From contig CAZPMN010000001.1 in NCBI GenBank assembly GCA_964587835.1, positions 22,232 through 86,231 on the forward strand: a DNA stretch of 64,000 nt. Reading direction: 5' to 3'. This document shows positions 33,730 through 64,000 of the stretch, piece by piece. The position numbers were made by a program, and so were the translations under genes. Below the pieces are notes generated by a model. That model did not search any database. It saw nothing but the letters and a program-made list of their open reading frames with translations, and was not told the DNA's origin. The stretch comes from an uncultured bacterium (GTDB lineage: Bacteria > Auribacterota > Erginobacteria > Erginobacterales > Erginobacteraceae). Numbering within the stretch: the first letter of the stretch is position 1; every line of letters starts with the position of its first letter.

Positions 33730-33776
33730 GAGAGAGTCCTTCCGAGAATAGACAATCCGGATCCCGTTTTCCAAAT

Positions 33777-34580: not shown

Positions 34581-34635
34581 CTCCCGGCCCGATCAGCCGG
34601 CGTTTCCGGTGCCGGCGCCGGGACCGGGTTTGATT

Positions 34636-36204: not shown

Positions 36205-36225
36205 AGCATCAACCAGGTTAAGAAA

Positions 36226-39578: not shown

Positions 39579-39601
39579 CCCCGCCCCCCCCATATTTCTG
39601 A

Positions 39602-39864: not shown

Positions 39865-39875
39865 GAATGATTTTT

Positions 39876-41957: not shown

Positions 41958-41962
41958 AATTA

Positions 41963-42090
41963 CCTATTCTCTATTCCCTATTACTGCTCACTGCTCACTG
42001 ATTACTACTCACTGATTACTGCTCACTAATTACTAATTACTGATTACTGATTACTGATTACTGATTACTGATTACTGATTACTGATTACT
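41963..42090. repeat. Heptamer tract, 16 units (7 perfect GATTACT) plus CTATT-type units
   Basis: GATTACT/GCTCACT/AATTACT units 41979-42090; same family as 1308-1405 on the opposite strand. Confidence 0.97.
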
Positions 42091-42275
42091 ACTACCCATT
42101 CCCCACGCGAAAAGTCCGCCACCATATAGATTAATCCGTTAAATGCAAGCACTATTTGTCTCCAAGCCATCCTGAACCAGACAAAGGGCGGGGAGAACTA
42201 ACATGTCCGGGCCGGCTATTGGGCGGAAATAATTGACCTTGTCTTACTCGCGGTCATCCTCTATTTTTAATCACC

Positions 42276-44125: not shown

Positions 44126-44229
44126 CCCGGCCCGCTCGCCGGGATGTTTTGCCCGGCTGAAAGGATAAAATGGGCTGGTCGCCCCGTTTCTGACCTTCCC
44201 GCGTCCCGCTGTCTCACGTTTTCTCGTGT

Positions 44230-45081
44230 ATGAAGAAGAAGGTGACCATCGATAGTTCAGGATTGCCTCGGGCCCTGACCATCGCCGGCTCCGACTCCGG
44301 GGGCGGGGCGGGGATTCAGGCCGACCTCAAGACCTTCCTCTCCTTGGGGGTTTTCGGAGCCACCGCCCTGACAGCGGTCACCGCCCAGGATACCCGGGGG
44401 GTGAGAGAGTTCTCCCTGATATCCCCCCGGCTGCTCGGAGCCCAGATCGACGCGGTGATGGAAGATATCGCTCCGTCAGCGGTCAAGACCGGGATGCTGG
44501 GGGGAGCGGGAATCATCGAGACTGTGGTCCGGAAGGTGGCCGAGCATGACATAACCCGGCTGGTCGTCGATCCGGTGATGGCGGCCACCTCCGGGGACCG
44601 GTTGCTGCGTTCCGGGGCGGAGGAGAAACTTATAAACCTCCTGCTTCCGGCGGCGCTGATTGTCACCCCCAATCTTGATGAAGCCGGCCTCCTGGCCGGG
44701 TTCCCAGTCACCGACCGGAGGTCGATGCGCCGGGCGGCCCGGGCGATCCGCGCTCTGGGGCCCCGCTACGTGGTGGTCAAGGGCGGCCACCGGCGCCGGG
44801 ATGCCGACGATCTTCTCTTCGACGGTCGGGAGATGTTCTTCCTCCCCTCTCCCCGCCTGACCGGGGAGAATCTCCACGGAACCGGCTGTACCCTGTCGGC
44901 GGCGATCACCGCGTTTCTCGCCCGGGGTTTTCCGCCCCGGGAAGCGGTCATATCCGCCAAGAATTATATGGTCGCGGCCCTGAAAAACCCCTTGCATCCC
45001 GGCCGTGGCTCGGCGGTAGTCGACTGGTCAGCCGGCGGCAGGGGTGAATATCCGGTGGCAACTCCCCGGGAGAGGCGGTAG
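44230..45081 (+). CDS. thiD: Hydroxymethylpyrimidine/phosphomethylpyrimidine kinase
   Basis: IAGSDSGGGAGIQADLKT, VKTGML, HGTGCTLS. Confidence 0.95.
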   Translation: MKKKVTIDSSGLPRALTIAGSDSGGGAGIQADLKTFLSLGVFGATALTAVTAQDTRGVREFSLISPRLLGAQIDAVMEDIAPSAVKTGMLGGAGIIETVVRKVAEHDITRLVVDPVMAATSGDRLLRSGAEEKLINLLLPAALIVTPNLDEAGLLAGFPVTDRRSMRRAARAIRALGPRYVVVKGGHRRRDADDLLFDGREMFFLPSPRLTGENLHGTGCTLSAAITAFLARGFPPREAVISAKNYMVAALKNPLHPGRGSAVVDWSAGGRGEYPVATPRERR

Positions 45082-45174
45082 AATAAAATAAATCGACCGG
45101 GATCGGGTCTACCCCACCGCAACTAACACCGGGGCCCGCATCCCCGGATAAAGAGCAAACCCCAGGGAAGGATT

Positions 45175-45678
45175 ATGACCATTATGCCGATCAAGATTTA
45201 CGGGACCCCGGTCCTGCGGGAGAAAGCCCGTCCGGTTGAAGGGATCGATGACGGGGTTCTGGACCTGATCCGCCGGATGACGGAGAGCCTCTACTATCAT
45301 CAGGGCCTGGGACTGGCCGCCAACCAGGTCGGGGTGGCGACCCGGCTCTTCCTGGCCGACGAGGGGAAAGGACTGAAAATATTTCTCAACCCCGTAATCC
45401 TGGAGCGGACAGGGAGGGTGGCCGGAGAGGAAGGCTGCCTCAGTTTCCCCGAAGTCTTTGTGGAGATACCCCGGGCGGAGTCGCTGCTGGTGGAGTACCT
45501 CGACGAGAAAGAGGAGGTTCGGAGAATGGAGGCGGAGGGCCTGCTGGCCCGGATCATCCAGCATGAATACGATCACCTGGAGGGGGTTTTGATCTGTGAC
45601 CGGGCCGGATTCATCGCTTCCCGGATGATCAGAGGGAAGCTGAAAAAGCTGAAAAAGCGGTCCCGGGAATCTATGTGA
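45175..45678 (+). CDS. def: Peptide deformylase
   Basis: GLGLAANQVG, EGCLS, QHEYDHLEG. Confidence 0.97.
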   Translation: MTIMPIKIYGTPVLREKARPVEGIDDGVLDLIRRMTESLYYHQGLGLAANQVGVATRLFLADEGKGLKIFLNPVILERTGRVAGEEGCLSFPEVFVEIPRAESLLVEYLDEKEEVRRMEAEGLLARIIQHEYDHLEGVLICDRAGFIASRMIRGKLKKLKKRSRESM

Positions 45679-45724: not shown

Positions 45725-46519
45725 ATGGCGGAGTCTTTACCGAAGGCGGGACAAGCGCCTTTCCTTTCCGTGGTCATCCCGGCCTACAACGAGGAATCGC
45801 GCTTGCCGGCTACTCTGGATCGGATCGCGGAATACCTCCGGGGACAGTCCTATCCCTACGAGGTGATCGTGGTCAGCGACGGCAGCCGGGACTCGACGGC
45901 CGCCGTCGCCCAAAGCTGGCGACCGGAGGGTTTCCCGCTCGAGGTCGTCGACCGGAAGGAGAACCGGGGCAAGGGCTATACGGTCCGGGAAGGAGCGGCC
46001 CGGGCCCGGGGTGAGCGCATCCTCTTCTCTGACGCCGATCTCTCTACCCCGATTGAGGAAGTGGAAAAGTTCCTTCCTTTTTTTCGGCAGGGTTACGAGA
46101 TCGTGATCGGTTCCCGTTCGCTGAAAGATTCGAATATCCTGGTCCGGCAGCCGTTTTACCGGGAACTGATGGGGCGGGTATTCAACCGGCTGGTCCGGAT
46201 CCTGGCGGTCCCGGATATCGCCGATACCCAGTGCGGGTTCAAATGCTTTTCCCGGCGCGCGGCGGACGGGATCTTCCCCCGCTGCCGGATCGACGGGTTC
46301 AGTTTCGATGTTGAAATTCTTTTTCTGGCCCGCCGTCTCGGACTGGCGGTCCGGGAGGTACCGGTCAGATGGCGGAACGCCCCCGGCAGTTCGATCAGCC
46401 CAGCGCGCGATTCCCTGCTGATGCTGGTCGACATCATCCGGGTGCGGGTTTACGCCCTCCTCCGGTCCTATCCGGCGGAGGTGTCTTCAGCAAACCATAT
46501 ACCGGGGGATATCTCCTGA
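45725..46519 (+). CDS. GT2 polyprenol/dolichol-phosphate hexosyltransferase
   Basis: VVIPAYNE, NRGKG, DADLSTP, DTQCGFK, FSFDVE. Confidence 0.85.
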   Translation: MAESLPKAGQAPFLSVVIPAYNEESRLPATLDRIAEYLRGQSYPYEVIVVSDGSRDSTAAVAQSWRPEGFPLEVVDRKENRGKGYTVREGAARARGERILFSDADLSTPIEEVEKFLPFFRQGYEIVIGSRSLKDSNILVRQPFYRELMGRVFNRLVRILAVPDIADTQCGFKCFSRRAADGIFPRCRIDGFSFDVEILFLARRLGLAVREVPVRWRNAPGSSISPARDSLLMLVDIIRVRVYALLRSYPAEVSSANHIPGDIS

Positions 46520-46557
46520 CGGACAGGGATGGGTGGAGAGCAAGATCCGGGGATAAT

Positions 46558-48819
46558 ATGCGGATAAAATGGTTGAGCTGCACCATCCCCCTGGCTGTCG
46601 CCCTGATCTTGCGGCTGATTTTCTTGGCCGAAATCAAGGGTACTCCGGAGTTCTCTCATCCCGGCCTGGACGCGGCCTACCATATCTACTGGGCCCGGGG
46701 TCTGGCCGAGGGGGACTGGACTGATTTCGAGGGAAGGGAGGACCCTCAGCTCTACCGCTTCCCCTATTACCGTCCGCCCGGCTACGCTTTCTTCCTCGCC
46801 CTGATCTTCAAGCTTTGCGGTGACGGTCCGGTCTGTCCCCGGCTCTTCCAGTTCGCCCTGGGACTGGGATCGGTCTGGATGGTGGGATGGCTGGCCCGGC
46901 GTTTCTTCGATCGCCGGACCGGATTACTGGCGGCCCTGGGGACGGCGGTTTATTGGATCTTCATCTACTATGAAGGAGAGCTGGTTGGGGTGGCCGGTTC
47001 GGTCTTTCTTATCCTCCTCTTCACCTGTCTCCTGGTTTGCGCCGCCACCCCCCGGAGTTTTACCACTTACCTGCCGGCAGGATTGGCGCTTGGTCTGCTC
47101 TCGCTCTTCCGCCCCAACGCCTTGCTGTTCATCCCCCCGGCCGCCCTCTGGGCTGCCTGGCCGGTCCGCCGCGTTTCGGAATCCCGGCGGCTGGGGACGG
47201 CGGCTGGGGGTCTCCTTTTCGGGGCGGCCATAGTGGTTCTTCCGGTGACCATCCGGAATTACGCGGTCTCCGGAGAGATAATCCCGATTGCGACCAACGC
47301 CGGGATCAGTTTCGGGGTGGCTAACAACGAGTTGAGCGACGGGACTACCCATTTCATCCCCGGAATCGGCAATATCGGCAGTCCTTTTGACTGGCCCCGG
47401 ATCGTCCGGAAGCTGGAAATCGCCCAGGGTCGTCCCCTCGGTCACGGAGAGGCCTCGAATTACCTCACCCGTCGGGCCCTGAGATACGCCCTCGAATCTC
47501 CGGGGCAATTCCTCCGGCTGACCGGCCGCAAGGCGCTTCTCTTCTGGGGTCCGAGGGAGATTCGGAATTTGAGAGAAGTTTATTACGCTCGAATTAACTC
47601 CCCCTTGCTGCGCCTCCTGCCCGGCAACTTTCCGCTGATTCTGGCCCTGGCGCTCCTGGGCGGGATAATGATCCTCGGATTTCCCGCGGCCAATCGCGGG
47701 TCGGGGGAGAGGAGGGGGGCCGCTCTGATCGTGCTCCTGGCTTTGGTGTATTTTCTCTCGATGCTACCCTTTGCCGCCGGTGCCCGCTACCGGGTTCCGG
47801 TGATTCCTTATCTGATCATCCTGTCGGCGTCGGCGGTCCGGAAGGCAGGCGCTCTCTTTGCGGCCCGGCGCTGGCTCCCCGCCCTGGGTGTCGTCGGCGC
47901 CGGGACGGCGCTTTACCTTCTCTGCTCGCTTAACCCCACCGGTTTTCAGCCCTCCTTGGAGAAGTGGCACTACGACCGAGGTCTGGCCCGGTTGGAGGCG
48001 GGGCAATGGGAGGAAGCAGTTTTGGAATTCGATCGAGCGATCGCCTTGGAATCTGGATACGCCTCGGCTTATGTCAATCGCGGGGTTGCCCTCCAGAAAG
48101 CTGGAAAGTTCGCTCTGGCGGCGGAATCATACCACCGGGCGCTCCAGCTGGAGCCCGCTTCTCTTCCCGCCTTGAAGAACCTGGCCGACCTTCTCCTGGA
48201 GGAGGGGAAGCCGGAAGAAGCCTTCTCCCTTTATCGCCGGGCTCTCTCCACCGGCCCGGAGCATTCCGCTATCGCCGTCGACCTGGCCCGGGCTCTGGCC
48301 GGAGAAGGGAAGACGGCGGAGGCGATCGGGGTTTACCTGGATATTCTCCGCGCACGCCCGGATAGCCCCTCGGCCCGGTTGGGACTGGGCAATCTGCTCC
48401 TGGAAGGGGGCGATACCCACGCCGCCCTTCAGGAGTACCGGGCGGCACTGAAGGTTAACCCGCATTCGGTGGTGGCCCGCTATAACCTGGCCAATGCCCT
48501 GATCGCGGAGGGTCGGATCGAGGAGGGGATCGCCGAGTACCGGGAGGTCCTCCGGCGGGAGCCCGGCCATCGTGATACTCACAATAACCTGGGAGCTCAG
48601 CTGGCCGCGCGGGGGGAACTGGATTCGGCTCTGAAGCAGTTCGAGGCCGCGATCGCCAGCGACCCCGGCGACCCGGCCGGATATTTCAACCGGGGGATAG
48701 TTCTGATCAGGCTCGGCCGGCCGGGGGAGGCGAGACGCGACCTGGAGAAGACCCTGGAGTTAAGCCCGGACTATGACCCGGCCCGCCGGGCCTTGCGGAT
48801 GGTGGAGGGGGGCAAATGA
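46558..48819 (+). CDS. GT-C (ArnT/PMT-like) membrane glycosyltransferase with C-terminal TPR array
   Basis: LDAAYH acidic loop, YYRPPGY, about 11 TMs, about 7 TPRs. Confidence 0.75.
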   Translation: MRIKWLSCTIPLAVALILRLIFLAEIKGTPEFSHPGLDAAYHIYWARGLAEGDWTDFEGREDPQLYRFPYYRPPGYAFFLALIFKLCGDGPVCPRLFQFALGLGSVWMVGWLARRFFDRRTGLLAALGTAVYWIFIYYEGELVGVAGSVFLILLFTCLLVCAATPRSFTTYLPAGLALGLLSLFRPNALLFIPPAALWAAWPVRRVSESRRLGTAAGGLLFGAAIVVLPVTIRNYAVSGEIIPIATNAGISFGVANNELSDGTTHFIPGIGNIGSPFDWPRIVRKLEIAQGRPLGHGEASNYLTRRALRYALESPGQFLRLTGRKALLFWGPREIRNLREVYYARINSPLLRLLPGNFPLILALALLGGIMILGFPAANRGSGERRGAALIVLLALVYFLSMLPFAAGARYRVPVIPYLIILSASAVRKAGALFAARRWLPALGVVGAGTALYLLCSLNPTGFQPSLEKWHYDRGLARLEAGQWEEAVLEFDRAIALESGYASAYVNRGVALQKAGKFALAAESYHRALQLEPASLPALKNLADLLLEEGKPEEAFSLYRRALSTGPEHSAIAVDLARALAGEGKTAEAIGVYLDILRARPDSPSARLGLGNLLLEGGDTHAALQEYRAALKVNPHSVVARYNLANALIAEGRIEEGIAEYREVLRREPGHRDTHNNLGAQLAARGELDSALKQFEAAIASDPGDPAGYFNRGIVLIRLGRPGEARRDLEKTLELSPDYDPARRALRMVEGGK

Positions 48820-50516
48820 GGAAACTATTTTTCTATCCCGCCCTGCTGATTACGGCGGCGGTCGTTCTGGTTTACCTGAATAGTTTCTCCGGCGATTTCG
48901 TCTTCGATGACGAGGCGGCGATCGTCCGCAACCCCCATCTCTCCCGGATCTGGCCGCCCCGGGCCGCGTTGGCCGCCCCGCCGGACAGCCCGCTGCGCGA
49001 CCGGCCGGTGGTCAGCTTTTCCTTCTCCCTGAACCGGGTCTTGACCGGGCCTTCCCCGGGCTCCTTCCACGCCGGCAACCTGCTGATCCACCTGGCGTCG
49101 GCACTGCTGCTCTTCGGCATTCTCCGGCGCACCTTTTCTTCCCCCCGTTTTCCCGAGCGCTACCGCCGAGCCGGCGACGCCCTGGCTCTTGCTGCCACCC
49201 TCATCTGGGCGGTGCACCCGCTCCAGACCCAGGCCGTCACCTACCTGACCCAGCGCTGCGAGTCCCTGATGGGGTTCTTCTTCCTGGGGACGCTCTATGC
49301 CTTCATCCGGTCGTCGGCCTCTCCCCGGCCCCGTTTCTGGTTCGTCCTTTCCGTCATTAGCTGCGGGCTGGGGATGGGGTCTAAGGCAGTGATGGTCACC
49401 GCACCCCCGTTAGTCCTCTTTTATGATCGGGTCTTTGTCGCCTCCGGCTGGAGGCAACTCTGGAGGAGACGCCACTGGTATTACCTTGGCCTTTTTCTCA
49501 CCCTGACCGTCCAGGCGGCCTTGCTCCTGACCACCTCCTACGAGGATATCAAGACTCATCATCCCCTGGAATACGGTCTGAGCCAGTTCGGGGTGATCGC
49601 TCATTACCTCCGCCTGGCCTTGCTTCCCCACCCGCTCTGCCTCGACTATCACTGGTTGCCGGCCAGGGGTGCGGGGGAGATCTGGGCCGGGATGTTGCTC
49701 ATCCTCGGTCTGCTGGTTCTCATCGTCTTCGCCTGGCGAAAATTTCCCCCGCTCGGTTTTGCCGGACTCTGGTTCTTCCTCATCCTTGCTCCCACCTCGT
49801 CCGTCCTCCCGCTGGAAGACCTTGCCTTCGAGCACCGGATGTACCTGCCCCTGGCCGCCCTCGCCATCCTCGGGGTCGCGGGGGGCTTCGAGTTGCTCCG
49901 GCGGCTTGGGCCCCGCTCACCCGGGTTCCGAAATTTCTGGGGGGGCTTCTTCGTCCTGCTCGTCGTAATCCTGCTCGGCGGTCTGACCGTGATGCGCAAT
50001 CGGGATTATCATACGGCGGAGGGGATGTGGGAGAAAGTGCTCGAGCTCCGGCCGCATAATCCCCGGGCTTATAACAGCCTGGGAAATATCGTCCTCAAGG
50101 CCGGAGATCCATCCCGGGCGGAGAGACTCTATCGCCGGGCGATCGCCGTCTCTCCCCATTACCAGGCGGCCAATTACAATCTGGCCAACCTTCTGGCCGG
50201 GAAGGGGGAGACGGAGACGGCGATCGCGTATTACCGCCGGACCCTGGAGATCAACCCCGCCGCGGTGGAGGTTCACAACAACCTGGGGATAGCCCTCTAC
50301 TCGATTGGTAAGGTCGAGCAGGCCCGCGGCCATTTCCGGACCGCCCTGGATATCGACCCCCGGGATCCCGCCGCCCACTACAATCTGGGGCTGCTCCTGC
50401 TCAATGAAGGGGATCCCCGCGCCGCCCTGTCTTACCTGGAGCGGGCCCAAGAACTCCGTCCCGATCACCCCCCCATCTTTCAGGCGCTGGCGGAGACGCG
50501 CCGGCGCCTCAGGTAA
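48816..50516 (+). CDS. TMTC-like GT-C glycosyltransferase with TPRs
   Basis: DFVFDDEAAIVRN, RPVVSFSF, AVHPLQTQAV..QRCE, AFEHRMYLP, TPRs; ATGA overlap. Confidence 0.8.
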   Translation: MRKLFFYPALLITAAVVLVYLNSFSGDFVFDDEAAIVRNPHLSRIWPPRAALAAPPDSPLRDRPVVSFSFSLNRVLTGPSPGSFHAGNLLIHLASALLLFGILRRTFSSPRFPERYRRAGDALALAATLIWAVHPLQTQAVTYLTQRCESLMGFFFLGTLYAFIRSSASPRPRFWFVLSVISCGLGMGSKAVMVTAPPLVLFYDRVFVASGWRQLWRRRHWYYLGLFLTLTVQAALLLTTSYEDIKTHHPLEYGLSQFGVIAHYLRLALLPHPLCLDYHWLPARGAGEIWAGMLLILGLLVLIVFAWRKFPPLGFAGLWFFLILAPTSSVLPLEDLAFEHRMYLPLAALAILGVAGGFELLRRLGPRSPGFRNFWGGFFVLLVVILLGGLTVMRNRDYHTAEGMWEKVLELRPHNPRAYNSLGNIVLKAGDPSRAERLYRRAIAVSPHYQAANYNLANLLAGKGETETAIAYYRRTLEINPAAVEVHNNLGIALYSIGKVEQARGHFRTALDIDPRDPAAHYNLGLLLLNEGDPRAALSYLERAQELRPDHPPIFQALAETRRRLR

Positions 50517-50544
50517 TCGCTGGCCCGAGGCTGGTGGCTTGAAC

Positions 50545-50573
50545 TTGACAGTGGGTTCGCCTGAAGCTATATT
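50545..50573 (+). promoter_or_regulatory. Sigma70 promoter
   Basis: TTGACA-17 nt-TATATT. Confidence 0.7.
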
Positions 50574-50648
50574 ACCAAGAACAGGTTCAAGCGAACCGCA
50601 AATATTCCCGGCGATAATATCAGGGGTGTTTTCCCGGGCAAACTAATT

Positions 50649-52469
50649 ATGTTCAGAATGTTCGTCATCCTGGCTCCGGCCCTGATCATCACGGCGCCCT
50701 CCCTGACCGCCGCTCCCTTTGATCTGAGGGCGGTGCTGGCCGACGCCCCCTTAAGCATCAACTCGGTGGCCGCGGACGAGAACCGGATCTACGGTGCCGG
50801 GGGTGACGGTACCCTCTATGCCTGGGCGAAATCCGACTTCTCCCTCCAGACGGAGCTCCCTCTTGCCGACACCTATCTCAACTCGGTCTCGGTCTCCAGT
50901 GGTTCGCTTCTGGCCGGATCATCCAACGGCCTGGTCTATCTGCTGGACCGTGTCTCTTTCTCACTGCAGACGGTCCTCGATCCGGCCGGGGGGCCGATCT
51001 ATTCGGTTTTCGCCGACGGCGATTTCGTTTACGCGGCCAGCGGCGACTCGGCCCTCTACATCTGGAACCGGGCTGTCCTCTCTTTCAACCGGGCGCTTGA
51101 TGATTGTGCCGATGTGCTCAACGCCGTCTATGCCGATGGGGATTACATTTACGGGGCCGGGGAGGACGGCTATCTCTATGTCTGGTCCCGATCCACCTTC
51201 TCCCTCCTCCACCGTCTGGAGGGGGAAGAAGGATTTTTGGGTGTCTTCGCCGACGGCGAGCACCTCTACGGGGCGAACAAGGACGGACGGGTTTACCTCT
51301 GGAGCCGGCCGGGGTTCGGATTCTTCTCTTACCTGGACGGACCCGGCGACTGGATGGCCTCGGTCTACAGCCGGGAGAGGTTTCTCTTCGGGGCCAACGA
51401 CGACGACACTGTCCGGGTCTGGAACCGGGCCGCCCTCTTCTTCATCGCTGATCTGCTCGGGCCGGCCGACTGGATGAACTCGGTCGCCGCCGATGAGACG
51501 TACATTTACGGTGCTGCGACCGACGGCAACGTCTATGTCTGGGAGCAGGGACCGCCGACCTCACCCACCCCGACACCTTCCCTGACTCCGGTTCCTACCG
51601 CCACCCCGAGCGCCACCCCTTCGCCGGAACCGACCGCCGAGCCCACCGCGGCCCCCACCTACGCTCCCACCCCGGATCCTCCCCGCAGCCCCACCCCGGT
51701 TCCGGTTCCTTCCTGGCTGGTCCTGGGAGGGAATGACTACGACGGGGACGGCACCGCCGACCGGGCGGTTTTCGACTCCAGCCGGGGCCGCTGGTCGATC
51801 GATTTGAGTTCGGGTTCGAGCCCGCTGGTGGAGTACTTCGGCCGCGCGGGAGATCTCCCCGTCCCCGGGGATTATCGGGGCGACGGGACTACCGCCCTGG
51901 GGGTCTACCGCCCCGCCACCGGTCTCTGGTCGGTCCGCGGGGTCAGCCGGTGGTATTTCGGCCGCCACGGAGATCTTCCGGTTCCCTCGGATTACACCGG
52001 CGACGGCCTGACCGACCTGGGGATCTTCCGGCCGTCCACCGGGTTGTGGGCGATCCGGGGGGTGACCCGGTTCTATTACGGCCGGACCGGCGACCTCCCG
52101 GTCCCCGGGCGATACTCCGGCGAGGGGACCGCCGTGCCGGCCGTCTTCCGTTCCGCCTCCGGACTCTGGGCGGCCCGGGGGTTGACCCGCCGTTACTACG
52201 GCCGCCCGGGCGACTTCCCGGCTCCCGCCGATTATAACGGCGACGGATCCGCCGACTTCGGGATCTACCGTTCCGCGGGCGGATTCTGGGCGGTCGCCGG
52301 CCTGACTCGGGCTTACTTCGGCACCGCGGGAGATTTCCCCCAGCCGGCGGATTATTCCGGTGGAGGAACGAGCGCGATCTCGATCTACCGTCCCACCAGC
52401 GGTCTGTGGGCGATCCGGGGCCAGACCCGGGCTTACTGGGGCGGACCCGGCTACACTCCCCTGCGCTAA
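50649..52469 (+). CDS. Secreted 7-bladed WD40-like propeller + Pro/Thr linker + six FG-GAP-like repeats
   Basis: Signal peptide; 7 repeats of about 40 aa (SV.AD..IYGA..DG.VYVW); PTPTP linker; 6 x DYxGDG..R..GLW..RG.TR.Y.G. Confidence 0.85.
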   Translation: MFRMFVILAPALIITAPSLTAAPFDLRAVLADAPLSINSVAADENRIYGAGGDGTLYAWAKSDFSLQTELPLADTYLNSVSVSSGSLLAGSSNGLVYLLDRVSFSLQTVLDPAGGPIYSVFADGDFVYAASGDSALYIWNRAVLSFNRALDDCADVLNAVYADGDYIYGAGEDGYLYVWSRSTFSLLHRLEGEEGFLGVFADGEHLYGANKDGRVYLWSRPGFGFFSYLDGPGDWMASVYSRERFLFGANDDDTVRVWNRAALFFIADLLGPADWMNSVAADETYIYGAATDGNVYVWEQGPPTSPTPTPSLTPVPTATPSATPSPEPTAEPTAAPTYAPTPDPPRSPTPVPVPSWLVLGGNDYDGDGTADRAVFDSSRGRWSIDLSSGSSPLVEYFGRAGDLPVPGDYRGDGTTALGVYRPATGLWSVRGVSRWYFGRHGDLPVPSDYTGDGLTDLGIFRPSTGLWAIRGVTRFYYGRTGDLPVPGRYSGEGTAVPAVFRSASGLWAARGLTRRYYGRPGDFPAPADYNGDGSADFGIYRSAGGFWAVAGLTRAYFGTAGDFPQPADYSGGGTSAISIYRPTSGLWAIRGQTRAYWGGPGYTPLR

Positions 52470-52556
52470 GTCCCGTTTTCCCAACGAATTACCGGGCCCG
52501 ACCCAGCTCGGGTTCCCTGTCCTGTTTGATCCTGCCCTTGCCTCCCGTGGTCTCGC

Positions 52557-52613
52557 AACCCGGCATATATTGCCTACTTATCGCCCAAGTAGGCAATATA
52601 TGCCGGGTTTTTC
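52557..52613. terminator. 23-bp perfect hairpin with T-tail
   Basis: AACCCGGCATATATTGCCTACTT-ATCGCCC-AAGTAGGCAATATATGCCGGGTT followed by TTT. Confidence 0.7.
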
Positions 52614-52910
52614 TCTATCAGCAAACACTTTCTCCTCCAGTTAGGAACAGACTGCCGTGCGCAGACAGTGCTTTGAGTTTCGAAGCCAGAAATTTTCGTG
52701 ATAGGAGGGGATATTCGCCGGATAAATGGGAGTAAAGCAGGAGGATTTTAAAAGCTGGCATGGTAATTGCTGATAATGTGGTCAAGAAGAAATTGTCCGA
52801 TCAAAAGCAATGGATCATCCGTTTTGGGAGAAGAGTTCTGAAGAAAAAAATCGTTCAATTTTCCGCATGGAAGGTGAGCGGGTATCCGAAATTAGCAGTC
52901 TAAGGATCTA

Positions 52911-55900
52911 ATGTTCAAACTGGAAAACAAATTGTTCGCGGTTATCTCGGCCGTAATGCTCCTGGGGTTGCTCCCGGCCGGTCCGGTCCAGGGTGGCAAC
53001 CCGGACGCCGGGTTGCGGATCGAGGTTCTGACCGCCTACAATTTCATCGTCGACTCCAATGTCGAGTCGCCCTCCACCTACGCCCCCCGGGCGGCTTACA
53101 TTGAGGCCAGGATCTGGAACGACGGTGCCACCGATCTGACCGACGTTACGGCTTACGTCGGGAATTACTCCGCCGGTACCCCGGGTGTCTATCCCTCCCG
53201 TTCCCACCCTGACCTGGTCGGACCGCTTCCCGGCGGGGAGTTCGCCCTCACCCACGAAGGGGGAACCCTGGGGACCGCCGACGCCACCAGGTACCTCGGC
53301 ACCATTCCCGCCGGGGACTATATCCCGGTCTACTGGCTGATCAGCTACCCCAACCTGGACGAGAACGGGGACTCGGTCACCGGAGGATCCAATCCCGACG
53401 ACGACCTCTACCTTTACTACGACATCTGGGCGGCCGCAGACGACGGGGGGGCCCCGCTGGAAGCCGACGTCACTCGGAAGGTGACGATGCGCAGCTGCAT
53501 CAGCGCGATGTCCAACAAGATCTTCCCCAACACCGCCAACAAGGTTCCCGAGGAGTACCAAGAGTTGCTGGAGAAGTACGCCCCGGAGTGGAACTTCAAC
53601 CCGGAGGACGGATCGACCGGGACCAAGATCAGGACCGAGGGGGTCTGGTACGATCTGGGCAACGTCACCGGGGGTTTTGACAACGACGGCGACCTGGTCC
53701 CCGACCAGAATGCCTGGCTGCAGCCGGTCGGCGACGCCAACCAGTTCGATGCCGGGGCCTTTCGGTTGGCCAAGACCTACGCCCTGATCATTGTCAAGCT
53801 CAAGAGCGGGGGCGAACTGGTGATCGAGGCCGAGGACCAGCTCTACTTCCCCAACCTCCCCGACAACAACGGGGTGGTCGGCCTGGTCCGCTACGATTTT
53901 CAGGTCCTCCAGCAGGGAGCCTCCTCGCAGATGACACCCTACCAGATGGCGGCCTCGGGGAATGACAACGAGAAGTTCAACGGGGATTACGGGGCCGCCC
54001 TGGGGGAGGGTTTGGTCTCGGAACCCTCCCAGCTCACCCTGGAGAAGAGCGGTGCCGCGGCTGCCGCCCCGGGCGAGGAAATCGAATACAGCATAGCCTT
54101 CGAGAACACCGGCGCCGTAACCGTGGGAGATCCTTTGACCGGGGGTCCGCTGGTCATTCAGGATTCGATCCCTGAGGGCGCGGTTTACGTGGCCTTCTCC
54201 GCCGCCACCGACAACACCCTCCCGGATGGGGTCTCGTCCTACACGATCCTCTACTCGACCGACGGAACCGCTTGGCTGGATGGGGAGCCGTCCCCCGCCA
54301 GCGCGGTGACGGATATCCAGTGGTGGTTGAGCGACGCTCTAAACCCGTCGGCGGGCGGAACCGTCACCTTCTCGGTCGAGGTGGACGACCCGGCGTTCGG
54401 CCCGCTGGTGACCAACTCCGCGGGCTTGAGTTTTGGCGGGACCGCGGCCTTTATGAACGACACCGCTTTGACCCTGATCTCGGGAAACAACCGGCTCGGG
54501 GACACGGTTTTCCAGGACGACGGGGCCGGATTCGATTACGCCAACTGGGTTCGGGATACCGGTGAGGACGGGATTGAGGGGGTGGTTGTCACCCTTTACT
54601 ACGATACCAATGGGGATGAAGCCGTCGACTCCTCTGACTTCGTGATCGGGACGGAGGTCACCGACAGCTCCGGCTGGTACGAGTTCAGCGACCTCTTTGA
54701 CGGTGACTACCTGGCGGTAGTGAGCGCTTCCGACCCCAATCTGCCCGAGGGCTACTCCCCGACCTCCCCGACGGTTCAGGCCGCCGACCTTGACTCGGCG
54801 ATGACCGACCCCAACCCGGTGGTTGACCTCGACGCCGACTTCGGCTTCGCTCCCGCCCTGGTCGTGGAGAAGTCCCTGGTCGGCTCCTCGCCGGTTTACG
54901 AAGGTGACGATTTCTCCTACCAGGTTACGGTGGCCAACAACCATCCCGGGACCGGGGGAGGGGGGAGCGGCTCGGTAACCGTCACCAGCTACGCCACCGC
55001 CCGCGACACCGCCAAAGACTCCGGGACCGACTGGGCCGACCAGAGCAATGCCCTGGGCGAACCGGACGACGTTGAGGCGGTCTGCACGGTCGGCAACAAC
55101 GTTGATTCGATGGGCGTGACCGGCTTCAGCGGCAGCGAGGTCGGGGAGATCACCCAGGCCCAGGTCCGGGTACTCACCCGCAGTGACAACCCCGACAACC
55201 ATAGTTTCTTTTTCTATGTCTATCTCTGGCTCCCGGGTGCCGCCTCCGGAATCGAGATCGGATCCTACGACGAGATCTCGCTGGTGGACGGCTGGGATGG
55301 TTATCTCAGCTTTGATGTCACCGCGGCGACAGACTGGACCTGGGATACCGTGGCCGCCTCCTCGATCCAGTTTTCGGCCCAGAAGTCGGGGGGACCGGGG
55401 GGGAACCTGATCTACGTCGACTCAGTGGATTTTCGGCTGACCTCGGACGTCGAGTATCCCCCGGTCACCGACTCCAACACCCTCTCCCCGGCCCCCCTCC
55501 AGGATATCTACGACGCCTCTCTGATGACCTTTGTCTCCGCCGACCCCGCCCCCTCGTCCTTCAGCGTGGAGAGCGGGGTGGGGACCATCGATTGGGACGA
55601 CCTCGGCCCGATTTACCCGGGCGGCGAGAGCGCGGTGACGGTATATTTCACCGCCCTGGAGCCGCCCGGCAACGACTTCACCACGATGACCAACACCGCC
55701 CTGGTCGAGTGGGCCACCTTCAGCAACGGGGTGGCGGCCAACGCCGGTTCCGACCAGGCCGTGGCCGACCTCTACTCGACCGGATCGATCGGAGATTTCG
55801 TCTGGCGCGACCTCGATGGGGACGGGGTTCAGGACGGGGGTGGCGAGACCGGGATCGCCTCCGTGACCGTGGAGCTGACCCCGCCGGCGGGCGTTGACCT

Positions 55901-58900
55901 CGGCAACGGGGACGGTCAGCCCATCACCACCGTCACCGGCAGCGACGGTTTCTACCTCTTTTCCGGGCTCCGGTCCACCGGCACCTACACCGTGGCCGTC
56001 CTCACCTCCACCCTGCCGGGGGGGACGGGGAGCAACACCTACGACGAGGACGACGGGACGGTCAGCCCGGACAGCCAGGCAGTCGTGGTGCTCGGTCTCG
56101 ACGGTGACGGTCCCGAAGACCACCTGACCGCCGATTTCGGTTACCGGGACCTGCAGGCCCTGATCACGGGGACGGCCTGGAACGACGTTGACCGGGACGG
56201 GGCGGCCGCGGCCGAGACCGGGGAGCCTCTCCTTTCCGGAGTGACGGTCGAACTTTACGACAGCGGGATGAGTCTGCTCGATACCACCACCGCCGCCGCC
56301 GACGGGACCTTCTCCTTCTTAAGCGACTTCAACGGCACCTACACCGTGAAGGTCATCACCGGCACCGGTCAGCTCTCCGGCGACTGGACCGCCTCCTACG
56401 ACTCCGACGGCCTGGCCACCCTCGACCTGGTCTCCGTCAGCGTTCCCGCCGGGGGGTTGGGGGAGGCCGATTTTAGCTACTACGAAACCGGCGATTACGA
56501 TATCGGGGACACCGTCTTCTACGACTGGAACGGCGACGGCGACCAGGATGTGGGCGAGGAGGGGATCCCCTCGGTCACCCTGCGCCTCTACCGTGACATC
56601 AGCGCCAACGGTATCTACGATGCCGGGACCGATCCCCTGGTGGCCGCGGATACCACCGATACCGACGGCAACTATCTCTTCGAATCCTTGCCGGCGGGGA
56701 ACTACGTGGTCAAGGTCGATCACGACTCCGCCGGCCTGCCCGACTCCTACAACCTCACCGCCGACCCCTCGGGGGCGGCCGACGGGGAGGGGTCCTCGAC
56801 CATCCTCGCCGCCGACGATCTCGACCAGGATTTCGGCTATCAGCCCACCGGGACCGGTTCGATCGGCGACACGGTCTGGCGCGACCTCGACGGCGATGGC
56901 CTCCAGTCGGGGTTCGGGGAGACCGGTATCCCCGACATCACCGTCACCCTCCAGGCGGACTTCAACGGCGACGGCACCTACGTCACCCTGGAGACCGCGG
57001 TCACCGACGCCTCGGGTCGGTACCTCTTCACCGATCTGCCCGACGGCGATTACCGGGTGGTCGTCGACACCTCGGACTCCGACCTTCCGGAGGACGCCTT
57101 CGGTTACGCCTGGTCACCGATCACCGCCGTGACCGATGACGTGACCATCTCCTCCGGCTCCACCGACCTGACCGCCGACTTTGGTTTCGCCCCGCTCGCC
57201 GCCGTCGGCGACACCATCTTCTGGGACGTCAACGAGAACGGGACCCAGGACGGCAATGAGGACGGGGTGGAGGGGGCCGTGATCGAACTTTATACCGACA
57301 CCGACGGGGACGGTTACTACAGCGCCGGGGACGTCCTCTTCTCCACCGCCACCACCGACGCGGATGGGATCTACCTCTTCTCCGGCCTGGCCGCGGATGA
57401 TTACGTGGTCTTTGTGGCCCAGACCGGGGTTCTGGCCGGAGCAATCCTCTCCGCCGACCCGGAGAACGACGGCCTGCCCTGTTCCGACCTCGAGGCGGTG
57501 GGTTGCGACGGTGAGACCGGGATCGACCTGGCCATCGGCCAGAACTTCATGGGCGCGGACTTTGGGTATCTCCCCTCAGGGGGGAGGCTGGGCGGGACGG
57601 TCTGGATCGACTTCGACGACGATGGGGTGGTGGACGAGGACGAGGTCGCGATCCCCTTCGTCCAGGTCGAGCTCTACAGCGGCGCGTCCCTGATTGCCAC
57701 GTCGACGACCGATGAGAACGGGGACTATCTCTTTTACGGACTGGCTGACGGGACCTATCAGGTGGTGGTCCGGACCGACCTGGACTTCCCCGATGGTATG
57801 ACCCAGACCGCCGATCCGGATGGAAGCCTGGACGATACGGCCCAGGACGTGGTTCTCTCCGGGGGGACGGTCACCACGATCGACGGCGCTTCCTGGACCG
57901 CCGGGGACCTGGAGATTAACTTCGGCTACCGCTTCGCCGGCGACAACACCCTCTCCGGCACCATCGGTCTCGACGGCGAGACCCCAGACGGCGTGCTCGG
58001 TTCCGGGACTTCCGGCGTGAACTCCGACGAGGTGGCTTTCGAGGGGGTGAAGGTTTACGCCTATCTCTGGCACGACTCCGACGAGGACGGGGTGATCGAT
58101 CCGGGAGAGGCCGAGATGCTCGCCAGCACCGAGACCGATTCCAGCGGGGATTACTCCTTCACCGGTTTAGCCGAGGGTGAAGAGGGGGACTACTACATCG
58201 TTTCGATGACTCCCCCGCTGGCCAGGCTCGAGTTGACCACCACCGTCTCCGACACCCCGGCCGTGATCCTGGAGGAGACGACCGACAGCCAGGGCTACAG
58301 CACCGGAGTCTACCAGGTCGTCCCCATCCCGCCGCTGGGGTCGACCACCAACCTCGACTTCGCCTTTGTCTCGGCGGCGGACTACGACTTCGGCGATCTT
58401 CCCGAGGAGTACGCCACCTCGCTCCCCAACGGGCCCCGCCACGCGGTCAAGGTTATCCCCGACCTCTACCTGGGATCCCAGGTCGATGTCGAGGGCAACG
58501 GGCTGCCCGACTCGGCCGCCGAGGGGGACGATCTGGACAACCTCGACGACGAGGATGGGGTCTCCCTGGTCGGGTTCTGGAACGAGGGGACCGGCGGCGG
58601 GGAGCTCGAGTTGACGGTGAGGGCGGGGTCGGGCTGGCTGGTCGCCTTCATCGACTTCGACGGCAACGGTACCCTGACCGGCTCCGGCGAGATGATCGCC
58701 AGCCAGTTTGTCTCCGAGACCGGAGGCGTCGCCTCCGACGGGGTTTACAGCCTCAGCCTCGACATCCCCGACGACAGCCTGGCCGATGATACCACCACTC
58801 TTTACGGCCGCTTCCGCCTCCTTTCCCGGGAACCACTCTTCCCGGAACTCTCCACCGGGGGGGAGGCGGATGACGGCGAGGTCGAGGACCACCTCTGGGT

Positions 58901-61900
58901 CCTCAACGCCATCCGGGGTACCGTCTACCTGGACAGCGACCTGGACAACGTCTTTTCGGCCGGGGATACCACCCTGGCCGGGGTGATCGTCCGGCTCTAC
59001 GACTCTTCGGATAACCTCCTGCTCTCGACCGTGACCGATGGATCCGGTGATTACGCCTTCCTCCGCGTCCCCGACGGCGATTACGAAGTCAGGATGACCG
59101 TCCCCGACAGCGCCGCCGCCCTGACCGACGCCGACGGCGCCGGTAACGGGGCCGACCTGATCGAGGTGACCCTGGCCGGGGCGAGCGCCTACGATCGGGA
59201 CTTCCTCCTCGACACCGGAGCCTCCCGAGCGGGGATCAGCGGGACGGTTTACGCCGACAGCGACGGGGACTTGGCCTTCTCCGGAGGCGACACCACCCAG
59301 GCCGGGGTCCCGATCCTCCTCTATCGCGACATCAACGGGGATGGGGTGGCGGACGAGAACGAGCTGGTCGAGTCGACCGCCACCGACCCCGACGGGGACT
59401 ACAGCTTCCCCGACCTGCCCGACGGGGACTACCTGGTGGTGATGGAGACCCCGGCGGGGGCGGGTGGCATCACCGACGCCGACGGGACCGGCAACGGTCC
59501 CGGCCTGATCGAAGTGACCCTGGCCGGGGTGAACATAACTGATCGGGATTTCCTGATCGATACCGGCTCCGACCTGGGAGCCCTGGGCGGCCGGGTCTGG
59601 CTGGACGAGAACTCCGACGGGATCGAGAACGCCGGAGAAGCCGGGGTGGGCAACGTGACGGTGGAGCTCTACGACGAGACCGGGACCATTCTCCTGGCCG
59701 AGACCCTGACCGACACCGAGGGGCGCTACCTCTTCCCCGACCTGGTCCTGGCCGATTATCTGGTCAAGATCGACTCCGCCGGGATGGCGGCTGATCTGGC
59801 CGCCAACCCGACCGCCGACCCCGACGGGATAACCACCGCCCACCAGGCCGACGTCTCCGTCTCCTCGGTCACCGGGATCCTGGACGCCGACTTCGGCTAC
59901 AACTGGGCCCCCACCGCCGACGTGACCGGGAACACCAACGAGGGAGCCATCGGCGACCGGGTCTGGGTCGACAGCGACGGCGACGGGCTCCAGGACCCGG
60001 GGGAGCCGGGACTGTCCGGGATCACCGTGGAGCTGAACTACGACTCCGACGGCGACGGGACCATCGACGCCCTCTGGGCTTCTTCCACCACCTCCGCCGA
60101 TGGGGGTTACGTCTTCACGAGTCTGCCGGCCGGAATCTACGAGGTTGAGATTAACGGGGGGTCAGCCCCCTCCGGTTACACCCTGACCGGGGATCCGGAC
60201 GGAACTTCGGACAACCGGACCACCACCCCACTTGTCCTGGCGCCGGGCGACGTCTACGTCAACGCCGATTTCGGCTACCAGCCCTCGGCGGAAAGCACCG
60301 TCTCCGGAACGGTCTACTGGGACGTCGATGCCGACTCCGACTTCAACGCCGCCACCGGGGACTCCGGCGTTCCCGGCGTGACCGTGGCCCTGTACAACGA
60401 CTCCGACGAGGTGATCGCCGCCACCCTGACCGATTCCGACGGCGGTTACTCCTTCACCGGCCTGCCGGCGGGGGACTACATGATCTGGATCAACGACACC
60501 GAAAACCTCCTCGGTTCCGGGTACCAAATCGAGGATCCGGACGCCTCTGTGGACGCTCTCCACACGGTAACCGTTAACGGGACTGCTTTCTACACGAGCA
60601 ACGACTTCGGCTACGCTCCTGACGGCCACGCCGCCGGCAAGGGCCTGATCGGGGAGACGGTCTTTCTCGACCGGGATGGCGACGACGCCTTCGACCCGGG
60701 GGAGGGGGTCCAGGGGGTGGCGGTGGAGCTATACGACGATCTCGACGTCCTCCTGGCCGAGACCGTCACCGACGCCAACGGCGACTATTTCTTCGGGGGA
60801 CTCGATGACGGGGACTATGTGGTGAAGGTGGATGCCTCCACCCTGCCTTCCTCCGGAGCGGGACTGAGCAACTCGGTCGATCCGGACGGCGGCGACGGGG
60901 ATGAGTCGGAGGTGACGATCAGCTCCGCCAACCTCGACCTCGACCAGGACTTCGGCTACGAGGCGACCACCCCCGGCCAGATCAGCGGGATGTTCTGGGA
61001 GGATCTTGACGCCGACGGAACCCTGGATGGTTCCGAAACCGGTCGCTTCTCCGGGGTGACGGTGATTCTGAAAGACAGCGCCGGCAACGTGGTGGGGTCA
61101 ACTGCCACCGACGGGGACGGGGAGTACTCGTTCGCCGGACTCGGAGCCGGGACCTACTCGGTCGACGTCACCGACGACGCCAAACCGCTCAACGGGCACT
61201 GGCACTCGTCGGGGACGGCCGGAGTCTCCGGTGAGAGCCAGGCCGATCTTTACACGGTTACGGTCAGCGCCGGCGGCAGTTCCACGGTTGACTTCGGGTA
61301 CTACGTCCTCCCCGCCGCCATCGGCGACTTCGTCTGGGACGACCTCAACCGCAACGGGATCCAGCAGGACGGCGAGCCGGGGATCGAGAGCGCCTGGGTG
61401 ACCCTGACCGTGGCCTGGCCGGACAGCAGCTCGACCCTGGTCGCCTTCTCCACCGACAGCCAGGGGAGCTATCGGTTCGACAACCTGCTCCTCGACGAGA
61501 ATTTCACCGGTCTGGGTTCGGGAGAGCCGTTACACACGGTCGGTTTCTCCGCCCTGACCGGTTACACCTCGACCTTGGTCGACGTCGGGAGCGACGACAG
61601 CCTCGACTCCGACGGCCTCGAGGTAATCGCGTCTCCGGTCCAGGGAAGTTACGACGATACCTACGACTCCGGGTTCTACGTCCCGGGGGCGCCGACCCCG
61701 ATCCCGACGGCCACCCCCTCGGTCACCCCCACGCCCTCCGTTACACCCACTCCTTCCGTGACCCCGACTCCGACGGCCTCGGTGACGCCAACCCCGTCGG
61801 TGACTCCGACCCCGAGCCCGTCGGTCACCCCTCCGCCGACGTCGACTCCAACCCCAGTCGGCTACAAGACGCCCACGGCCACGCCTACCCGCCCCCCGGA

Positions 61901-64000
61901 CTGCGTCGACCTCATCCCCTCCGGGGCCGGCTCGTCCACCCAATGGACGGTCCAGGGAGCCTCCGCCAACTGGGCGGCCGTTACCTCCGACGATGGGAAT
62001 TTCAGCTACGTCTATACCGCGACCAACGGGAATATCGACCGCTACGGGATGGAACTCTTTCCATCCGGGGGCAAGATCGCCGTGGTCGAGGCGTTCTTCC
62101 GCGCCCGGAACACCACCGGCCAGCAGTTGCTGATGGGGATGGGGATCAATGTCGGCGGGGTGGATTACCTGGTGAGCGGGATCGATACCACCGCTGCTTA
62201 CTCCCTATACGGCGGCGAGACGGATTCCCTGGCCTGGCTCAACAATCCGGCTACGGGATCGCCCTGGACGCCTTCGGAAGTTGACGGTATCCAGACCGTG
62301 ATCCAGCACCAGCAGTCGCAATCGCGGACGGCCCAGGTGACAGAGGTCTACCTGACGGTCTGCTACTGGGCTACCCCGACCCCGTCCGTGACCCCGACGC
62401 CCTCGGTTACCCCGACCCCCTCGGCGACCCCGACCTCCTCGATGACCCCGACTCCGTCCGTCACGCCCAGTCCGTATGAATACAAGTCGCCCACGCCCCC
62501 GCCAACGGCGACCCCGACCCCAGCCGACTATAAGACCTCCACCCCGACGGTCACCCCCTCGGTTACCCCGACCCCGGAGGGATACAAGACCCCCACCCCG
62601 ACCCCGTCCGTGACCCCGACCCCGAACGGCTTTATGACCCCGACGCCCACCCCCTCGACCACCCCGAGCGCCACCCCCACGCCCCAGCCGGCCTTCCTGG
62701 GGAACTTCGTCTGGAACGACCGGAACAAGAATGGGATCCAGGACGGGAGCGAGACAGGGATCGGCGGGGTGGTGGTCAGTCTCTTCCGGAGCGACGATAC
62801 CTTCGTTCGCTACCGAACCACCAACGCCAGCGGGTTCTACTCCTTCAGCGATGTCCCGGTAGGGGACTACTACCTGGAGTTCTCCGGTCTCCCGGGCGGT
62901 TACTTCTTCAGCCCCGCCAACCGCGGCGGCGACGGGGCCCTGGACAGCGATCCGGCTATGGCCACCGGGAAGACGGGAACCATAACCCTCGAGCCGGCGG
63001 AGGCGGACTACACCTGGGACGCCGGGATCTACACCGTCCCCGACAAGTGCTTCGATGTCCAGCGTTTCTCCCTCCAGTCCGGGGAGACGGACAGCACCGG
63101 TCTGACCGAGACCGGACTCGAGGTCTCGACCAACCTGGCCGGGGAGGGGGCGCTGGCGGTCTTCGCCTCTTTCGGTGCGGAGATGCTCACCGGGACGGCG
63201 ACCGGAGCCTGGGCGCTCTCGATGGACGATACCTGGTCGAGTCAAACCATCCGACGTTACCTCGAGCCGGTGCCCGACCAGGTGACTTCAGGTGCCCTGC
63301 ACATCTTCGACTCGTTGTCGCCGGGTGTGCACACCGCCAAACTCCTCCACGCCACCAGTAACGCGGTTATGCCTCTCCGGACGCTTAATGCCGACCTGGT
63401 GGTCTTTCCCCTGGTCAGCGCCGACGGGATTACCGTCCTCAACCACAATCAGGTCATTCTCGGATCGACTGGGGAGACCACCACGTCCGATACCCTGACT
63501 GATGTTGCTGGACTAACCGCCACCTTTAATCTGGAAACTACCGGTCGGGTCTTCGTGGCGGCAGTCCTCAGTGGGGAGGCCGTGGCCGGTGGAATTATGA
63601 CCGGAACTTGGGACCTCCAGGTGGACGACCAAACGGTCGGCCAGAGTACGAGGCAATTCCTCTCCGGGACGGGTGGCCTGGAAACAGTCACCCTGTTCGG
63701 TCTCTCTGAAGATCTCTCTTGGGGAAGCCATACCGCCACCGTACGTCACGCCACGAACACCGGAACCATGAAGACCTCGAATGGTACCCTGATTGCTATT
63801 GCTCTCAGCGCCGCCGGCTCAGAGAATTCGAAATTTTCCCTCCCCGCTAGCAAGAATGGCACGTTCAATGGCGAGACTGGGACTTCCTTTACTGAACTCA
63901 CCTCCGTTCCTGGGGGCTATTCCCCTCTCTACGTATCGGACAAAGATCAGATTATGGTCGCGGCTAGCTTTACCGTTAAGGGTGGTTTAGGGGCGTCCGG
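52911..64000 (+). CDS. Giant secreted adhesin/surface protein, over 3690 aa, 3' end beyond window
   Basis: ATG 52911 after TAAGGA; signal peptide; same frame checked at 58440, 61680, 63000 and 63960; two DUF11-like domains, about 17 SdrD-B/Cna-B-like repeats (GD.VW.D.DGDG...DFG), GEVED-type region (DFGDLP..LYLG..DDEDG..DDGEVED), two Pro/Thr linkers. Confidence 0.9.

Follow-up and report, generated by a model that had tools for sequence, protein, structure and literature searches.

Within a 64,000-nucleotide stretch of contig CAZPMN010000001.1 from an uncultured member of the Erginobacteraceae (phylum Auribacterota), hereafter the window, we analyzed a run of four genes that begins at 45175 on the + strand. 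In order, these encode a peptide deformylase (def), a family 2 glycosyltransferase (GT2) and two membrane glycosyltransferases of the C-type fold (GT-C), here termed GT-C A and GT-C B, both of which carry C-terminal tetratricopeptide repeats (TPRs). They are followed by genes for two secreted proteins, P4 and P5. We put at a little under 60% the probability that the four genes, def-GT2-GT-C A-GT-C B, make up a conserved module whose function is the O-glycosylation of proteins in the periplasm, drawing on a single sugar linked to a lipid carrier. The proposal is anchored in the gene content, the homologies and the conservation of the block, from which we infer that the donor, the membrane topology and the protein nature of the acceptor are probably those set out below. 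Central to it is GT-C B, which on profile comparison is a true bacterial homolog of the animal TMTC enzymes with a divergent DUF1736 loop. An earlier note on this DNA had already described the GT2, the two GT-C/TPR genes, the ATGA coupling between them, a promoter at 50545 and the secreted proteins, and all of these were recovered where that note had placed them.

To our knowledge, TMTC-type O-mannosylation is known from animals only. The existence of full-length prokaryotic TMTC homologs, in poorly characterized bacteria, has already been stated (PMC7801869, 2021). Our literature search found no characterized bacterial TMTC-like or PMT_2+TPR enzyme, no glycoproteome of the PVC group (Planctomycetota, Verrucomicrobiota and Chlamydiota) and no study of glycosylation in Auribacterota. 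What is new here is that the homology to TMTC is quantified, that the gene stands in a conserved operon together with a DPM1-like synthase and another GT-C/TPR gene, and that the tandem arrays of paralogs and the size of the family are described. The locus offers a compact, minimal gene set for reconstitution, namely a TMTC homolog, a synthase that may supply the donor and another GT-C with TPRs, and its compactness provides a route to learning what the bacterial TMTC homologs do. If the enzymes glycosylate exoproteins, they would define a major, previously unrecognized protein modification system of environmental diderm bacteria; if this is true, the origin of the animal TMTC pathway would also become traceable.

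Kinship of GT-C B with the animal TMTC proteins

GT-C B (48816-50516, + strand, 566 aa; PMT_2 E 6e-8 and TPR families) combines a PMT_2-type GT-C domain of 11 helices (aa 1-385, 48816-49970) with about five TPRs, which are matched by TPR_1 and TPR_2 with E-values of 1e-33 and 1e-30 over aa ~390-562. Three motifs pointed out in the earlier note, FVFDD (aa 28-32), HP..T.AV (HPLQTQAV, aa 134-141) and EHRMYLP (aa 339-345), are present and all lie in this protein. The animal proteins TMTC1-4 (CAZy family GT105) are protein O-mannosyltransferases of the endoplasmic reticulum (ER) that act on cadherins. For comparison with them we took 12 animal TMTC1-4 sequences from the N-terminal domain alignment in Additional file 1 of PMC7801869. 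Profile-profile alignment with hhalign matched the GT-C B family to this reference with a probability of 99.9% (E 2.4e-33, 348 columns, 26% identity), residues 17-377 of B being aligned to 6-401 of TMTC. In control comparisons B against ArnT reached 0.3% (E 0.23) and A against TMTC 0.5% (E 0.12). Hence the label "TMTC-like", which the second GT-C had been given on its motifs, stands. GT-C B further resembles TMTC1-4 in that the alignment covers the whole 11-helix domain, in its C-terminal TPRs and in the occurrence of several paralogs per genome. It differs from them in lacking the DUF1736 "DNPA" signature and the Glu of the KE motif, and in having fewer TPRs.

The ligand motifs described for TMTC comprise DD, RP, HPxHTExV...RxD/E, KE(T/Q)xxT, D-W and ERxxY (PMC7801869). 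In GT-C B the DD pair corresponds to D31/D32, RP to R63/P64, the HPxHTExV...RxD/E motif to H134, P135, R147 and E149, and the Lys of KE to K190. The D-W pair is represented by D277-Y278, with Tyr in place of Trp and with D277 invariant in our alignment A1, and ERxxY by the conserved E339, R341 and Y343, the Arg being shifted by one position. Across two alignments of the family, of 50 and 44 sequences, the motifs DD, RP, HPxxTxxV...RxE, K, D(Y/W) and E.R.Y show no or almost no variation; D31, D32, R63, H134, P135, E149, K190, R341 and Y343 do not vary at all in the 44-sequence alignment.

These residues bear on the possibility that the GT-C/TPR proteins are inactive as transferases and instead serve exported proteins as TPR chaperones or assembly factors anchored in the membrane. 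Their top partial matches in NCBIfam are indeed PilW, PrsT and Tgl, which belong to pilus, secretin and exopolysaccharide assembly, but these come from the TPR part only. The invariance of DD, R/E, K and E.R.Y across dozens of diverged sequences, together with the co-conservation of the genes with a donor synthase, makes such a role very improbable.

In the AlphaFold2 (AF2) model of GT-C B (pLDDT 93.9) the last membrane helix is followed by a TPR superhelix, and by analogy with TMTC, via the alignment, the TPRs would face the non-cytoplasmic side. Searches of the PDB with the membrane domains of A and B as single sequences returned nothing at E up to 10. A profile from the full-length B alignment retrieved TPR proteins only, and one restricted to the membrane domain had no PDB match. 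The family itself is large, with 45,147 clusters (at 50% identity) when E-values up to 1e-3 are admitted and 5,737 when the limit is set at 1e-30, and some relatives are labeled "protein O-mannosyl-transferase" in the JGI annotation.

GT-C A, the GT2 enzyme and the proposed pathway

GT-C A (46558-48819, + strand, 753 aa; PMT_2 E 8e-12 and TPR families) has a PMT_2/ArnT-like membrane domain (~aa 1-467, 46558-47958) and about eight C-terminal TPRs. As hhalign of A against B gave 1.4%, the two belong to separate families. PMT_2 (PF13231) was the only Pfam match to the membrane part of either GT-C, with no hit to PF02366 or MIR. D38 in the first loop of GT-C A is near-invariant, and its AF2 model has a pLDDT of 93.2. 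The source contig (181,545 bp) carries, beyond the limits of the window, a third GT-C/TPR gene, P0153, which is of the A type and 49% identical over its membrane domain.

The membrane-domain profile of A matched ArnT (5ezm) weakly, at E 2.9e-4 and 23 bits, in a region confined to the generic PMT_2 core; hhalign gave 37% (E 3.6e-4). For the TMTCs (PMC7801869) and for TfpW (bioRxiv 10.1101/2020.04.19.049825), too, no solved structure is closer than ArnT, so the match of A does not by itself point to lipid A. The comparison with TMTC, Pmt and ArnT suggested in the earlier note was divided in its outcome: B sides with TMTC and not with ArnT, A has a weak match to ArnT, and neither matches PF02366.

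The GT2 gene (45725-46519, + strand, 264 aa; PF00535 E 1.5e-31) encodes a GT-A catalytic domain which, by its PF00535 and PDB matches, is homologous to the group formed by dolichol-phosphate-mannose synthase (DPMS), GtrB and ArnC. Its best solved relative is the Pyrococcus furiosus DPMS (5mlz, E 2.8e-21), followed by GtrB (5ekp, 1.6e-17) and ArnC (3e-15). All three put a sugar onto polyprenyl phosphate. These matches bear out the polyprenol-phosphate-sugar synthase proposed beforehand: by homology GT2 is a member of this synthase group, and we regard it as a candidate hexose synthase. No NCBIfam equivalog reached its cut-off, no score exceeding 65 bits where the cut-offs are 182-700 (62.8 bits for the ArnC model, cut-off 529), and because none comes near we assign no sugar specificity. 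Like human DPM1 and the catalytic domain of Ppm1, GT2 has no hydrophobic membrane segment, and it would be soluble or monotopic.

A different acceptor has to be weighed at this point, namely that the GT-Cs modify lipid A or lipopolysaccharide core, O-antigen, peptidoglycan or exopolysaccharide in the manner of ArnT or the Gtr enzymes, with the TPRs as scaffolds. The best solved match of A and the name "ArnT-like" given to A relatives by JGI agree with this, as do the resemblance of GT2 to ArnC and GtrB, weak matches to GtrII in 3 of the 44 B-family members, and an array in one related lineage (L006/L007) that adjoins ADP-heptose genes on the opposite strand. It is countered by the affinity of B, which is to TMTC (99.9%) and not to ArnT (0.3%), and by the weakness of the A-ArnT match, ArnT being the nearest solved structure for protein-modifying enzymes as well. 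Moreover, no arnA/B/D-like gene was seen among the 10 upstream open reading frames (32575-45678) or the downstream genes scanned, and no characterized GT-C with TPRs is known to us to have a lipid or glycan as its acceptor. Taken together, these points make a non-protein acceptor unlikely.

The preferred reading, protein O-glycosylation, can be laid out as a series of steps. On the cytoplasmic side of the inner membrane GT2 would transfer a hexose, supplied by a nucleotide sugar, to polyprenyl phosphate, and a factor encoded outside the operon would flip the lipid-sugar. Both GT-Cs, in each of which an Asp would lie in the first periplasmic loop and the TPRs would form a superhelix in the periplasm, would then take it as donor. 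If TMTC1-4, TMEM260 and TfpW are a guide, the TPRs would most likely select protein acceptors, on which Ser/Thr residues would be glycosylated. A periplasm is indeed expected in this organism, as LptD is encoded in the window (37179-39578); this indicates a diderm envelope, in keeping with the diderm host of the original proposal. Relative to TMTC1-4, the presumed setting is periplasmic and not the ER, the carrier would be polyprenyl and not dolichyl, and the TMTC homolog is translationally coupled to a second, unrelated GT-C. The conserved pairing and the overlap of the A and B genes (ATGA at 48816-48819, where the stop of A overlaps the start of B, as read directly in the sequence) suggests joint action of the pair, possibly as a heteromer resembling the PMT dimers.

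Elements of this scheme can be recognized in several known systems. The actinobacterial Ppm1/Pmt enzymes (GT2 + GT39) O-mannosylate exported proteins, at Ser/Thr of regions rich in Pro and Thr. They share the logic of a polyprenyl-phosphate-sugar synthase combined with a GT-C, whereas the present system lacks PMT (PF02366) and MIR domains, has TPRs in their stead, resides in a diderm and employs two distinct GT-Cs. The ArnC/ArnT system for lipid A aminoarabinose (ArnT being of family GT83) and the three-component GtrA/GtrB/GtrX system similarly pair a GT2 lipid-sugar synthase with a PMT_2-type GT-C; here, in contrast, there is neither a flippase gene nor an arn or O-antigen context, and both GT-Cs bear TPRs, which are foreign to ArnT and Gtr. 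TfpW of Pseudomonas aeruginosa, which O-arabinosylates pilin, is a GT-C for which 11 helices are predicted; it has a DDx motif, and its TPR domain lies in the periplasm (bioRxiv 10.1101/2020.04.19.049825). Going by its described architecture, it is comparable as a bacterial inner-membrane GT-C with a C-terminal TPR, a polyprenyl-phosphate sugar and a protein acceptor. It is distinct in that its gene adjoins that of its pilin in a conserved linkage, whereas the present locus has no pilin gene and its linkage to the adjacent secreted proteins is not conserved. TMEM260, compared by description and not by sequence, resembles GT-C A in combining a PMT_2 core with C-terminal TPRs; it O-mannosylates IPT domains, and distant bacterial homologs have been mentioned (PMC10214176). 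The characterized TPR-bearing GT-Cs, TMTC, TMEM260 and TfpW, all act on proteins (PMC7801869, PMC10214176, bioRxiv 10.1101/2020.04.19.049825). Given this, the membership of B in the TMTC family and the TPR arrays on both GT-Cs, which are structurally closest to the TPR superhelix of OGT, we favor protein acceptors.

Several observations weigh on the other side. The Pfam model TMTC_DUF1736, which covers the loop between transmembrane helices TM7 and TM8, did not match GT-C B at E up to 10 and matched only one of the 44 family members (E 0.022); the DNPA stretch of this loop has no counterpart in the B alignment. The Glu of KE(T/Q)xxT, modeled as a metal ligand, is Ala in GT-C B and variable in the family. 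Foldseek searches of the PDB with both AF2 models returned TPR proteins alone in the top 50, the TPR superhelix of OGT being best, so that these lists, filled by TPR matches, are uninformative on the membrane domains. The sole solved relative of A is ArnT, a lipid A modifier, if only by a weak match. The operon consists of GT2, A and B, none of which matches the GtrA-like flippase family. An orthologous GT2 lies beside the array in Auribacterota only, most B arrays elsewhere having no GT2 nearby. Finally, the role in glycosylation of the bacterial members is a predicted one.

Conservation of the enzyme block and its changing neighbors

To the block belongs def (45175-45678, + strand; PF01327 E 1.6e-41), which is probably in one transcription unit with GT2. 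The genes further upstream in the window are likewise of the housekeeping type, the series being holB, metG, an epimerase, LptD, EF-G, thiD and def. The nearest relatives of both GT-Cs, at 55-75% identity, come from metagenome-assembled genomes (MAGs) labeled "PVC group", Candidatus Auribacterota, Euphemobacter and Erginobacter. We compared the locus with those of four other Auribacterota-type lineages, namely L001, in which GT-C B is 73% identical, Euphemobacter frigidus (L002-4), a PVC MAG (L005) and a further relative (L006/7). The order thiD-def-GT2, followed by two to six GT-C/TPR genes, is kept in the first three of these. In L001, L002 and L005 def directly precedes GT2, and the GT2 orthologs score 399-461 bits. 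The fourth lineage keeps the GT-C/TPR array, and its available sequence begins inside that array. In all four the B ortholog is immediately preceded by an A-type gene, the two overlapping by 4 nt in L001 and by 1 nt in L002. The enzymes had been described at the outset as a co-oriented run, and the recurrence of thiD-def-GT2 with the array in relatives makes of this run a conserved module. Among the arrays of these lineages, the B-type frames right after GT2 are broken in two cases, a 120-aa N-terminal piece in L002 (2870-3232) and a split gene in L005 (2360-4962), which suggests decay or assembly errors inside paralog arrays.

The genes downstream of the array are different in each lineage. 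In L001 two small proteins precede DnaK/GroES/GroEL; we considered these small proteins as counterparts of P4, to which they proved to be unrelated. Euphemobacter frigidus has EF-P and EF-G in this position, the PVC MAG a SpoU methylase on the opposite strand, and the fourth lineage HldE with an epimerase, also on the opposite strand. Beyond these lineages we collected 79 further loci with B homologs from the species representatives of GTDB, mostly in Verrucomicrobiota, Planctomycetota and Omnitrophota, and none of the 85 loci has a neighbor of the SdrD_B type, which makes up much of P5, or any match to P5. Because the downstream genes differ in each lineage and SdrD_B neighbors are wanting in all 85 loci, P4 and P5 are not among the conserved components: the enzyme block is the conserved unit, and its adjacency to the two secreted proteins is particular to this genome. 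The earlier note had itself named a lack of conserved linkage to surface proteins as a refutation of its proposal, and this linkage did fail in the four lineages and in the wider set.

The B family occurs in tandem arrays of two to seven paralogs, as expected for substrate-specific isoenzymes. Arrays of seven are found in one MAG each of Verrucomicrobia (L022, 375-17946) and Planctomycetota (L047, 3258-18258), and the genome MFD01231.bin.2.4 has at least five separate TMTC-like GT-C/TPR loci.

P4, P5 and exoproteins with proline- and threonine-rich linkers

The 132-nt gap between GT-C B and P4 contains a promoter-like site of the sigma-70 type (TTGACA-17-TATATT, 50545-50573, + strand, 11/12 matches). 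P4 itself (50649-52469, + strand) is a secreted protein with a signal peptide, an N-terminal WD40/PQQ-like beta-propeller detected by Pfam propeller families, a proline- and threonine-rich (PT) linker and a C-terminal module of FG-GAP/VCBS-like repeats. The linker (~51543-51704) is about 50 aa long and consists of 38% Pro, 23% Thr and 10% Ser. The C-terminal module (51705-52469), of about 240 aa and ending in ...GLWAIRGQTRAYWGGPGYTPLR, is common to more than 800 secreted proteins, mainly from PVC bacteria and Auribacterota. The heads joined to it are unrelated to one another (cellulase, GH38, C1 and C25 peptidases, metallo-beta-lactamase), and it appears to serve widely as a C-terminal anchor or sorting module. 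Between P4 and P5 lies an intrinsic terminator (52560-52606, + strand), read from an unusually long and perfect hairpin with a 20-bp stem including 9 GC pairs, a 7-nt loop and a T tract following it. As this strong terminator splits P4 from P5, the enzymes, P4 and P5 form three transcription units.

P5 (52911-64000, + strand) is a giant secreted protein of more than 3696 aa, its frame being still open at the end of the window. It contains SdrD_B-type beta-sandwich repeats (E 9e-238) between 54498 and 63017, 16 by Pfam and 17 by a self-built hidden Markov model, and two PT linkers at 61680-61901 (74 aa) and 62361-62693 (111 aa). The description of both proteins as bearers of long linkers and some 17 SdrD-B repeats is accordingly right for the repeats and the two linkers of P5 and for the linker of P4, but P4 is a propeller protein and not rich in Ig-like repeats. 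The 17 repeats share the core TxTDxxGxYxF, in which one Thr is present in 94% and the two positions before it are Ser or Thr in 65%; these conserved Ser/Thr residues are possible glycosites. The PT linkers and the beta-sandwich repeats make P4 and P5 plausible as targets, and hence candidate substrates, of the GT-Cs. The division of labor supposed in the earlier note, with one GT-C acting on linkers and the other on folded repeats, is conjectural.

A stronger claim would be that the three enzymes are dedicated to P4 and P5, the linkers and SdrD_B repeats being their physiological substrates and the gene order reflecting this. P4 and P5 are the sole genes with genuine PT linkers in the window and lie immediately downstream of the enzymes on the same strand, and the eukaryotic substrates of TMTC and TMEM260 are likewise beta-sandwich domains (PMC10214176). 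Yet unrelated genes, largely of the housekeeping kind, occupy this position in the four related lineages, the SdrD_B and P5 search was negative throughout, and P4 and P5 have a promoter and terminator of their own. The P4 C-terminal module, moreover, is so common in exoproteins of this lineage that adjacency by chance is plausible.

Loci found through this C-terminal module speak to both sides of the question. Seven P4-like proteins (L088-L094) were identified in this way and their neighborhoods inspected. In L088 (3140-14075) a sulfatase gene is followed by a TMTC-like GT-C/TPR gene, which scores 96 bits to the B profile and has the KE and ERxxY motifs, and then directly, on the same strand, by the gene of a PT-linker protein (1444 aa, four linkers) and those of a P4-like protein and a protein of 616 aa. 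In L094 a PMT_2 GT-C and a GT4 adjoin a 922-aa PT-linker protein. A comparable case comes from L005, in which a secreted protein of the metallo-beta-lactamase fold with PT linkers directly follows an extra A-type paralog. Against these three cases, two of the seven loci (L090, L092) have no GT-C or TPR-enzyme gene nearby, L089 and L091 have only a sulfatase-TPR fusion, and L093 begins at a contig end. Since the counts are too small and the number of GT-C genes per genome too uncertain, we claim no enrichment. The associations in L005, L088 and L094 concern non-orthologous GT-C genes and are suggestive only, a lead to a possible looser functional link. On balance, we hold it to be rather unlikely that the enzymes are dedicated to P4 and P5.

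A broader version of the protein O-glycosylation proposal may be put forward as a tentative one. Bacterial TMTC homologs, together with a DPM1-like synthase and a partner of the PMT_2/TPR type, might constitute a periplasmic system for protein O-hexosylation, widespread among PVC and other environmental bacteria, which would decorate the PT linkers and/or beta-sandwich repeats of P4/P5-like exoproteins. Such a system would be a counterpart, and possibly the ancestor, of cadherin O-mannosylation in animals; we see this as a speculation that is less likely than not.

Two smaller observations concern the P4-like proteins. A 30-aa P4-like relic in L005 (15480-15602), a decayed last repeat, was considered as a trace of an ancestral linkage and discounted, the module being found in more than 800 exoproteins. 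The sulfatase-TPR fusions of L089 (5697-7685) and L091 (7780-9792) represent one orthologous locus in two genomes, where a gene with a PF00884 sulfatase domain is divergently oriented beside P4-like exoproteins; the fusion would be another TPR-bearing periplasmic modifying enzyme encoded near proteins of this type.

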